64,000 nucleotides of DNA from an uncultured Cryomorphaceae bacterium (GTDB lineage: Bacteria; Bacteroidota; Bacteroidia; Flavobacteriales_D; Cryomorphaceae): contig CAWILH010000002.1 in assembly GCA_963836915.1 (NCBI GenBank), positions 19,010 through 83,009 of the forward strand, in the 5' to 3' direction. The notes beneath the pieces are model-generated. The model worked only from the letters and a program-made list of their open reading frames with translations, was not told the DNA's origin and did not search any database. This document shows, piece after piece, positions 15,064-15,644 of this stretch (position 1 is its first letter; every line of letters begins with the position of its first letter). Both the position numbers and the translations under genes were made by a program.

Positions 15064-15071
15064 TCCTGCTA
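15064..15071 (+). other. Inverse core of attC-like site 5, interrupted by a group II intron
   Basis: TCCTGCTA(A) is complementary to (T)TAGCAGGA at 12764-12772. Confidence 0.7.
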
Positions 15072-15644
15072 ATCGAGTAGACGGCTCCGCCCCTAACTAG
15101 GGACGGAGTGCGCCTCTCACACCACTGTACCCTTCGACAAGCTCAGGACAGGCCAAGCGGTTCTCGTATACAGCGGTTCGTTAAGTTGCGGAGCAATATT
15201 GTTGTAGAGTCCTGCGGCTGATAAGTACCCTCGCTTCACAAGCCTTTCCAATGTTATGGTAGTGATTAGAATTGGGCTTTACTCATATCATTATATTGAA
15301 AGGTAGGAATTCGTGAGACCGCTGGCGCTAAGTTGGGCTACTGCCCAGCCTCCCATTACTCATAAAACAATTAGTTTTTAAAGGTATTCGTGAGATCGCT
15401 TCGCTAAGTTCGCGTGCGGCTCCATGCATACGCTTGGTCGGGTTTAATCCCTAGACGTATCAGGTTTTTCCGTTTACGTTCTCCTACCACCAGCTGGCTC
15501 AATCGCTAAAATAGTCCACCGGACTATTTCTTAACGCTCTGCCCTCCAATCATGCCATATGCAGTAGCGCAGACGGTTGCGCAACCATCCTTCTACCTTT
15601 TGTAATTTGGCATAGATATTTGCCATACGGTAGTGATTTACCCA
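15072..15644 (-). mobile_element. 5'-truncated group II intron (class C-like): RT/maturase C-terminus, domains V and VI
   Basis: Minus strand encodes WVNHYRMANIYAKL..GWLRNRLRYCIWHDW..RKRKNLIRLGIKPDQAYAWSRTR..MGGWAVAQ..SPILITTITL. Domain V reads GAACCGCTGTATACG...GTGGTGTGAGAGG, and the intron ends CTACTCGAT. Confidence 0.88.

Follow-up and report, generated by a model that had tools for sequence, protein, structure and literature searches.

A decayed, 5'-truncated class C group II intron in the last attC-like site of a cassette array from an uncultured Cryomorphaceae bacterium, and its Bacteroidota relatives

The class C (IIC) group II introns described from integrons insert at TTGT/T (a slash within a sequence marks the insertion point) in the R'' box of attC sites, on the bottom strand and in antisense orientation, and most of them are found in the last cassette (PMC7923331, PMC3001079). 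These IIC-attC introns, among them S.ma.I2, Kl.pn.I1, N.e.I1, G.s.I1 and Sh.ba.I2, combine a class C ribozyme with a reverse transcriptase (RT)-X protein lacking an endonuclease (En) domain; they form a monophyletic clade (100% bootstrap), and the catalogue of 2010 lists them from Proteobacteria, NC10 and two marine metagenome sequences of unstated host only (PMC3001079). A further case, UHB.F1 from a soda-lake cassette array, is 5'-truncated, frameshifted and antisense, with its domains V and VI (DV and DVI) intact (PMC7923331). As for the hosts considered here, IntegronFinder 2.0 reported complete integrons in Bacteroidetes for Salinibacter only (PMC9024848), and our full-text literature searches returned no report of attC-homing introns in Bacteroidota. 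In this study, we analyzed a 64,000-nt stretch (the window) of contig CAWILH010000002.1 (assembly GCA_963836915.1, positions 19,010 to 83,009) from an uncultured Cryomorphaceae bacterium, in which an intron remnant occupies the last attC-like site of a cassette array. Very probably, this element is the dead, 5'-truncated remnant of a class C intron from a Bacteroidota family that homes to the bottom strands of attC-like sites at TTGT/T, and it would have homed to this site, been truncated and then decayed.

The remnant was delimited with a nucleotide profile of 1919 positions built from 47 full-length relatives. On the minus strand, window positions 15644 to 15072 match profile positions 1533-1919 (nhmmer, E = 5.2e-69), and the search with the family profile found this single copy in the window. 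The last 387 profile positions are kept, comprising the end of the maturase open reading frame (ORF), DV and DVI, and the 3' junction is undamaged. Missing are 80% of the intron, on its 5' side, and the L''-L'-R' part of the attC site; unrelated DNA joins the remnant at 15644/15645. As the profile match begins only at position 1533, ribozyme domains I-IV are not in the window, and the element is a fragment, not an intron. The deleted part includes domains I and II, which in the IIC-attC lineage carry outward-facing promoters (Pout). In relatives, these domains were seen by Rfam (RF02001, 92-115 bits; RF01998). The remnant is 76-92% identical, in segments, to the copies in loci L002 and L001 (blastn; L numbers denote the loci and contigs compared here). 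A first-pass annotation of the window had placed the intron at 15064-15644, of which the profile supports 15072-15644, the remaining positions 15064-15071 being 3' exon, that is, the R'' half-site.

The 3' end of the remnant reads ...CTACTCGAT/TAGCAGGAG, and its tail, ...GCCGTCTACTCGAT, is followed by TAGCAGGAGTTAGTC and the stop codon of the plus-strand ORF 14659-15042. All of the 78 distinct DV-DVI sequences that we compiled from relatives and bona fide class C introns end in CTACTCGAT or a close variant, and the Rfam RF00029 alignment of the L001 relative stops on the same final T as the remnant. Together with the R'/R'' match described below, these ends bear out the earlier placement of the intron 3' end between the two A's of the bottom-strand inverse-core AAC.

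In cassette arrays, the bases after G/TT of an R' box are already part of the following cassette, whose own R'' must be complementary to them. The half-site abutting the remnant reads CCTGCTA/(AC) on the top strand and (GT)/TAGCAGG on the bottom strand, the 3' exon being TAGCAGG, and CCTGCTA (15065-15071) is complementary at seven of seven positions to TAGCAGG (12765-12771) in the R' box of the preceding attC-like site. The core of that box, GTTAGCAGG, is unique in the window, and the last cassette begins there at G/TTAGCAGG. Owing to this complementarity, the whole segment from 12764 to the intron was taken as one cassette, which contains an insertion sequence (IS) of the IS4 family and a lipocalin-like ORF (Table 1); the intron lies antisense to the latter. 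Judging from the sequence, the intron cut the R'' box of this cassette exactly at GT/T. Another candidate for the R'' box, GACTAAC (15057-15063), was ruled out by the constant GT/T cut in the relatives and by the match of all seven bases to the cassette start. Exact look-ups of P0011 and of the lipocalin-like protein gave no match.

A scan of one genome per species gave at least 78 loci with full-length copies, nearly all of them in Bacteroidota (Prolixibacteraceae, Marinifilum, Draconibacterium, Labilibaculum, Marivirga, Cytophagales, Saprospiraceae and others). Full-length introns with intact RT-GIIM ORFs of 438 and 458 aa were found near truncated copies in L001 and L002, respectively, and Rfam recognized domains I-IV in both and DV-DVI in L001 alone (RF02001, RF01998, RF00029). 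Across 55 distinct, non-tandem insertion sites, the 5' exon ends with T at -3 (52/55), G at -2 (55/55) and T at -1 (54/55), while the 3' exon begins with T at +1 (55/55) and A or G at +2 (54/55), two positions at which the 3' exon in the window agrees. The last 140 nt of the 5' exons gave a median fold z of -3.0 against shuffles, with 76% below -2, and 19 sites contain a 7-mer complementary to GT/TRRRY at six or more of its seven positions (15% in shuffles). This R' complement lies 121-131 nt upstream in 14 of the 19 sites, typically at about 127 nt, and individual folds show an R box (e.g., CATAAC paired with GT/TATG), a spacer, a long L box with extrahelical bases and a variable tip. The introns are always antisense to the surrounding small, mostly Pfam-less ORFs. 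In addition, a profile made from 25 of these attC sites gave 99 matches on the intron-sense strand and none on the other, some of the sites being unoccupied; its one minus-strand match is the attC of the window, where the intron is also on the minus strand. The 5' exons of full-length copies, as tabulated, thus place them at TGT/T in attC-like hairpins, antisense to small ORFs, and as a rule not after rho-independent terminators.

The first-pass annotation had taken the intron as independent evidence that the hairpins of the array behave as attC sites. Our data sustain this as far as structure is concerned, the hairpins being structural equivalents of attC bottom strands; recombination by an integrase is a further step that they do not show. 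By analogy with class C homing, the hairpins would be exposed as single strands.

Table 1. Features of the window discussed in the text (coordinates count from the first base of the window)
Feature	Position	Strand	Basis
Decayed 5'-truncated class C (IIC) group II intron remnant	15072-15644	-	nhmmer profile, blastn
Intron-encoded protein remnant, maturase/X C-terminal part	15117-15644	-	three-frame translations, Pfam GIIM, homologues
Domain V, lower helix CCGCUGUAU/GUACAGUGG, CGC triad	15122-15176	-	profile alignment, 78-sequence DV-DVI table, Rfam
Domain VI hairpin GAGAGGCG...CGUCU-A-CUC, 3' end ...CUCGAU	15072-15118	-	RNA fold, DV-DVI table, Rfam
Insertion of about 57 nt in the ORF remnant	15488-15544	-	profile alignment
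Two insertions of about 53 nt, mutual direct repeats	15357-15410, 15280-15333	-	profile alignment, pattern search
Truncation junction, 8-nt inverted repeat	15636-15661		direct reading, profile boundary 15644
Unrelated flank replacing the attC remainder	15645-15928		fold, terminator and homologue searches
R'' (inverse core) half-site of the last attC, the intron 3' exon	15065-15071	+	direct reading, R' complementarity
R' core GTTAGCAGG of the preceding attC (12632-12771)	12763-12771	+	unique window match, attC fold
Last cassette: IS4 insertion (transposase 13331-14554) and lipocalin-like ORF (14659-15042)	12764-15071	+	Pfam, NCBIfam, R'/R''
attC-like site with perfect R box	113-221	+	strict scan, fold
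attC-like site broken by an IS110-family element	8089-8210	+	profile match at 8092-8210
attC-like site	about 9528-9658	+	folding of intergenic stretches / profile
attC-like site	about 10225-10274	+	folding of intergenic stretches / profile
attC-like site	12632-12771	+	sequence and fold

The protein-coding part of the remnant carries frameshifts, stops and three insertions, ends with the stop codon TGA at 15117-15119 and overlaps DV with its last codons. The minus-strand ORF remains read ...WVNHYRMANIYAKLQKVEGWLRNRLRYCIWHDW... and, past frameshifts, KRKNLIRLGIKPDQAYAWSRTR, MGGWAVAQ and ERLVKRGY...NEPLYTRTAWPVLSLSKGTVV followed by the stop. By alignment, the truncation falls near residue 326 of the 438-458 aa protein, in the region coding for X/thumb, and about 128 residues of the X domain and C-terminus are kept; stitched together, this 128-aa peptide found 1167 homologues with 55-67% identity. 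Truncation inside the RT ORF near 15644 had been proposed earlier, and the boundary at 15644 was recovered here, with the correction that the surviving part encodes the maturase X/thumb region, not the RT fingers and palm.

The lower helix of DV has 9 bp, and Rfam, in the L001 relative, sets the consensus GAGCC against CCGCU, which confirms a triad of the CGC type. In its distal part, DV is interrupted by a 24-nt insertion (15130-15153) that recurs in both L002 copies (about 6430-6465 and about 1575-1600). One of these has the intact 458-aa ORF; a 23-nt variant occurs in L043, and L027 and L005 have other inserts at the same position, the lengths ranging from 23 to 52 nt. RF00029 detects none of the L002 or window DV copies, and the catalytic competence of the DV in the remnant is doubtful given this distal insertion. 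DVI folds as GAG-AGGCG...CGUCU-A-CUC with a bulged A as the branch point (15078), 7 nt before the intron ends in GAU; among the relatives the stem sequence of DVI varies with its pairing kept, as judged by eye from the DV-DVI table.

As regards the insertions in the ORF remnant, the one of about 57 nt contains a perfect hairpin, AAATAGTCC-GGT-GGACTATTT (15509-15529), which may be a miniature palindromic insertion element; a near-identical hairpin, AAAATGTCCGGTGGACATTTT, was observed inside the DV insertion of L005. The two insertions of about 53 nt read ACTTAGCG..GCG.TCTCACGAAT...ATGAGTA, a sequence found nowhere else in the window. The four insertions, the frameshifts and the stops were gathered after the truncation. 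With domains I-III and the RT domain missing, the remnant is presumably devoid of ribozyme and mobility function and would be unable to splice or move.

The proteins of the relatives have 438-458 aa with RVT_1 and GIIM domains and no En domain. In the PDB, the best matches of a full-length relative are the GsI-IIC RT (327 bits) and the IIC RT of 7UIM (324 bits), compared with 129 bits for LtrA and 117 bits for a IIB RT. The DV-DVI region is nearly identical to those of class C introns from Anoxybacillus, Enterococcus, Bacillus and Pseudomonas. On these sequence comparisons, the intron-encoded protein is of class C.

A blastn search with a full-length relative against E. coli genomes gave no match, and reference introns were therefore obtained by tblastn against plasmids with the UHB.F1 protein. 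In pASP-135, the order is intI1, blaCARB-2, aadA2, the intron (antisense), cmlA6, catB11 and qacEdelta1, with the junctions ...gaacgaattgt/GTACGCCCAGCATGGGC and ...GGCTACCCGAT/tagac; the class 1 integron controls (aadA2 and blaIMP-4 attC) have ...TTGT/GTACGCCC... and ...CCCGAT/TAGA. The proteobacterial IIC-attC introns share with the Bacteroidota family the class C ribozyme, the En-less RT-X protein, the TTGT/T site on the R'' bottom strand, the antisense orientation and, often, the position in the last cassette. Both intron ends are also similar, the family having GTGTGCCC(T or A)GCATGAGC at the 5' end compared with GTGCGCCCAGCATGGGC in N.e.I1, and CTACTCGAT at the 3' end compared with CTACCCGAT in the proteobacterial introns. 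The differences include the Bacteroidota host and, for the copy in the window, its dead and 5'-truncated state and its DV insertion. The DV-DVI region of UHB.F1, a truncated and frameshifted element as well, is clearly alignable with that of the remnant; in UHB.F1, however, the RT ORF is almost complete, and the element falls with the proteobacterial introns (72% and 64% bootstrap), whereas the remnant is the last fifth of an intron.

To place the family, neighbor-joining (NJ) trees were computed from Poisson distances over 410-414 columns with 100 bootstrap replicates, from 13 members of the family, three introns of proteobacterial plasmids (those in the aadA2 and blaIMP-4 cassettes of class 1 integrons and a third from an IncP plasmid, where it lies in a cassette-like array), UHB.F1, seven other class C proteins and a IIB outgroup. 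In these trees, which are of the NJ type only, contain four attC-clade references and have poorly supported deep nodes, the Bacteroidota family was monophyletic in 100% of the replicates, the proteobacterial clade and UHB.F1 grouped in 64-72%, and the family joined the proteobacterial attC clade in 0 of 100. The family proteins are 35-39% identical to those of the proteobacterial clade and 42-45% to Firmicutes class C proteins. The membership in the IIC-attC clade that had been envisaged for the intron was thus not recovered, and the safe statement is that the family works like the IIC-attC introns and is not nested in their published clade. The kind of element is known. What is new is its lineage, which spans Bacteroidota and stands apart from the classical clade, and the finding that 5'-truncated stubs have repeatedly taken the place of attC sites.

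Homing of introns without an En domain uses a single-stranded template. By analogy with such class C introns, the intron RNA-protein particle would have recognized the folded single-stranded attC hairpin together with pairings to the intron-binding sites IBS1 (TTGT) and IBS3 (T). Reverse splicing would then have occurred between GT and T in the R'' box of the last cassette, and copying by the RT would have begun from the 3' end. In an abortive retrohoming event, cDNA synthesis would have stopped, the RNA-bridged template strand would have broken, and the broken end would have been repaired onto other DNA, the 5'-exon side being lost with it. At least six incidental copies among the relatives are likewise 5'-truncated with an exact 3' end (L047, L050, L064, L023, L031 and L044), compared with one or two that are 3'-truncated, and the truncated copies that led to L001 and L002 are of the same 5'-truncated kind; upstream of the 5'-truncated copies found in relatives' flanks, there is neither an attC remainder nor TTGT. 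Because this asymmetry fits a retroelement copied from its 3' end, abortive retrohoming is slightly favored as the cause of the truncation, and we would give it about an even chance. At the junction itself, the last eight intron bases, ATTTACCC (15636-15643), form an inverted repeat with GGGTAAAT, which follows in the flank after 10 nt (15654-15661). By a rough estimate, a repeat of this kind would arise at a given junction with a probability of about 0.002; it is a single observation, which hints at fold-back or template switching.

An ordinary deletion at a later time, which would have removed profile positions 1-1532, the attC remainder and the distal cassettes or flank from a full-length intron, is a serious competitor, somewhat short of even. 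The remnant is old, with its four insertions and several frameshifts, and the array has been heavily rearranged by IS110, IS91, IS4 and IS1595 elements. The flank, moreover, opens with an orphan 58-codon frame (plus strand, 15663-15836) that has no homologue and no match in any relative's locus. However, random deletion should favor neither end, and 5'-truncated copies exceed 3'-truncated ones in the relatives; neither an IS end nor a deletion-mediating repeat is present at 15645. A deletion mediated by an integrase is unlikely because the junction has no GTT/AAC secondary site. The rest of the attC is gone, as had been noted earlier: the 156 nt upstream of the remnant fold like shuffles (DNA fold z 0.01, no hairpin), with no attC-profile match and no similarity to the intron. 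Past the flank lie a convergent GH15 gene and then a HerA gene (Pfam), at the higher G + C content of the chromosome, and the HerA-like protein is 76% identical to one from Cryomorpha ignava and 75% to one from a Cryomorphaceae bacterium.

It is very improbable that the remnant derives from an ordinary class C intron inserted after the terminator of the lipocalin-like gene, with a chance resemblance of its 3' exon to an attC half-site. The terminator-homing class C introns (GsI-IIC and B.h.I1 type; here L081 from Pseudomonas and L089 from Anoxybacillus) share with the family the ribozyme and protein class, DV-DVI, the 3' end and the insertion after a hairpin. Class C introns usually follow terminators, as in the control L081, which sits after GGCCGCC-loop-GGCGGCC-TTTT, and some of the family's own copies, a minority, follow hairpins other than attC. 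However, no terminator-like site was found in 14900-16000, the 3' exon is complementary to the first bases of the cassette at a real attC R' box, and, whereas terminator-homing introns follow short GC-rich stems and a T-run, the family follows imperfect attC hairpins, of about 127 nt in the commonest class, and cuts in the R box at TGT/T. As the intron is antisense to the gene, a terminator hairpin would fall in the lost 5' exon, where the window cannot decide. Least likely of all is an assembly artefact, in which repeated intron sequence was misjoined to the chromosome: the family is multi-copy, many relatives' contigs break at intron ends and the sequencing runs found by word index (X1 and X2) hold related intron copies only, not the window locus, and are neutral on the junctions, but a separate Logan contig from run ERR12040027 (L083, 15615-18378) crosses 15644/15645 at 100% identity and the copy in the window has private insertions.

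Several observations weigh against the view that the remnant is a dead member of an attC-homing family. Rfam found no intron family in the whole window at gathering thresholds, nor in 14500-16200 at E 10, because the 24-nt DV insertion hides the domain, and the match to Pfam GIIM (positions 35-78 of 80; 21.7 bits, E = 2e-4) lies below the cut-off of 23; proof was therefore sought from the relatives. The 15071/15072 junction rests on the one assembly. R'' alone survives of the last attC, and the hairpin and the TTGT of the lost 5' exon are not visible. Among the relatives, a minority of copies, mainly ORF-less, follow GC-rich perfect hairpins that are not attC sites (L023 at 11268, L050 at 15465), in line with the published observation that terminators remain usable targets for IIC-attC introns. 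The asymmetry between 5' and 3' truncation comes from small counts, abortive homing and later deletion are inseparable from one locus, and the trees keep the family apart from the proteobacterial attC clade.

Two further observations concern the structure of copies in the relatives. Fourteen ORF-less derivatives of about 668 nt (profile positions 1-525 and about 1824-1919) have exact ends, including L001 9099-9766, several in L049 and L050, L020 14808-15505 and L023 11269-11936; several of them lie at GC-rich perfect hairpins, not attC, with the common 3' exon TGAAC..AACCTAAAGGTAGC. Head-to-tail tandem introns, in which ...CTACTCGAT is directly followed by GTGTGCCC..., were found with junctions at L001 9766/9767, L004 9363/9364, L045 9111/9112 and L050 9361/9362, as if, at a site already occupied, the junction of 5' exon and intron had been the target of a second copy.

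The other attC-like sites of the array in the window (Table 1) show the full R''-L''...L'-R' layout of an imperfect palindrome with extrahelical bases. A strict attC scan (R''/R' match of at least 6/7 and an energy filter) returned the site at 113-221 as its only true one, plus several false pairs, and the remaining sites come from intergenic folding and the profile search. An IS110-family element (6900-8088; transposase at 6900-7919, minus strand, NCBIfam IS110 RNA-guided transposase) lies inside one attC-like site, and the intact paralogous attC at 12632-12771 (86% identity over 95 nt) places the break at 8088/8089, exactly between R'' and L''. This arrangement resembles, we presume, that of the attC-targeting IS1111 group. 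Like the intron family, the IS1111-attC insertion sequences are attC-specialized mobile elements; they are DNA transposons, however, unrelated to the remnant, which is of retroelement origin. At the left end, a block of low G + C content (about 36%; 1-6721) starts with the perfect attC-like site at 113-221. Its plus-strand genes related to copper and metals are HMA/DUF3347, one for a haem-binding protein and one for a multicopper oxidase, now in two pieces; a methyltransferase and an IS1595 transposase are also encoded there. The array may continue past the left edge.

The window has a single tyrosine recombinase (11633-12480). Its frame is broken, the IntI-specific segment of about 31 aa is missing, and its score on TIGR02249 is 142, with a cut-off of 265. 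An IS91-family transposase lies directly downstream of this IntI-like recombinase (10501-12480 for the pair), both being frameshifted and lying inside a GC-rich insert (G + C content 55%). The recombinase was rejected as an integron integrase for its lack of the IntI segment, its IS91 linkage and its foreign G + C content. Within the window, the array is thus a cluster of attC sites lacking integron-integrases (CALIN), and an integrase may lie past the left edge.

Recombinases were also observed near the arrays of relatives. In five loci, stand-alone tyrosine recombinases are found 2-4 kb from the arrays, on their promoter-proximal side, and are oriented like the cassettes (L030 11691-12830, L046 11973-13082, L047 11148-12329, L073 12769-13935 and L070 12818-13669), all except that of L070 being extended at the N-terminus by about 100 aa. 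Their best scores are with 'tyrosine recombinase/integron integrase' models, but they lack the IntI segment of about 31 aa; TIGR02249 matches them in two stretches, under the cut-off. In addition, the pair of IS91 and recombinase occurs within 8 kb of intron-bearing arrays in L007, L020, L023, L070 and L077, which suggests that an IS91-type element frequents such arrays.

For the array, the consequence of the insertion is that the last cassette, left with no attC of its own, should no longer be excisable, and that the recognizable array would end at the remnant. The proposal that the distal end of the array was lost with the 5' part of the intron is plausible and reasonable; it cannot be proven, as stubs also occur inside arrays, and a stub is for that reason not by itself a marker of an array end. 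L001, for example, has two stubs in series, flanking a Fic gene on the cassette strand. A stub at the end of an array was seen a second time in L002 (587-660 and 890-1686), where a 5'-truncated copy beginning at profile position 1165 occupies the distal array end and a tRNA gene lies about 230 nt away.

The remnant offers evidence for attC-type hairpins that is independent of motifs; it also shows where the last cassette ends and why the array goes no further than 15071. Beyond this window, at least 78 loci with attC-like arrays, nearly all in Bacteroidota, are colonized by one intron family. We tentatively suggest, as a possibility still on the unlikely side, that the family is a second, independent attC-homing lineage, in which the TTGT/T target was acquired or separately kept, within a parallel integron-like system whose neighboring recombinases lack the IntI segment, and that abortive homing of this retroelement parasite puts 5'-truncated stubs in the place of attC sites, which locks cassettes and sets array ends in this system. 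The same target in a separate grouping makes the origin of attC homing within class C, by convergence or ancient inheritance, testable, and likewise the Leon-Roy model of cassette formation by such introns outside Proteobacteria. The DV insertions, the 668-nt ORF-less copies and the tandem copies are natural variants for work on the ribozyme of this family.

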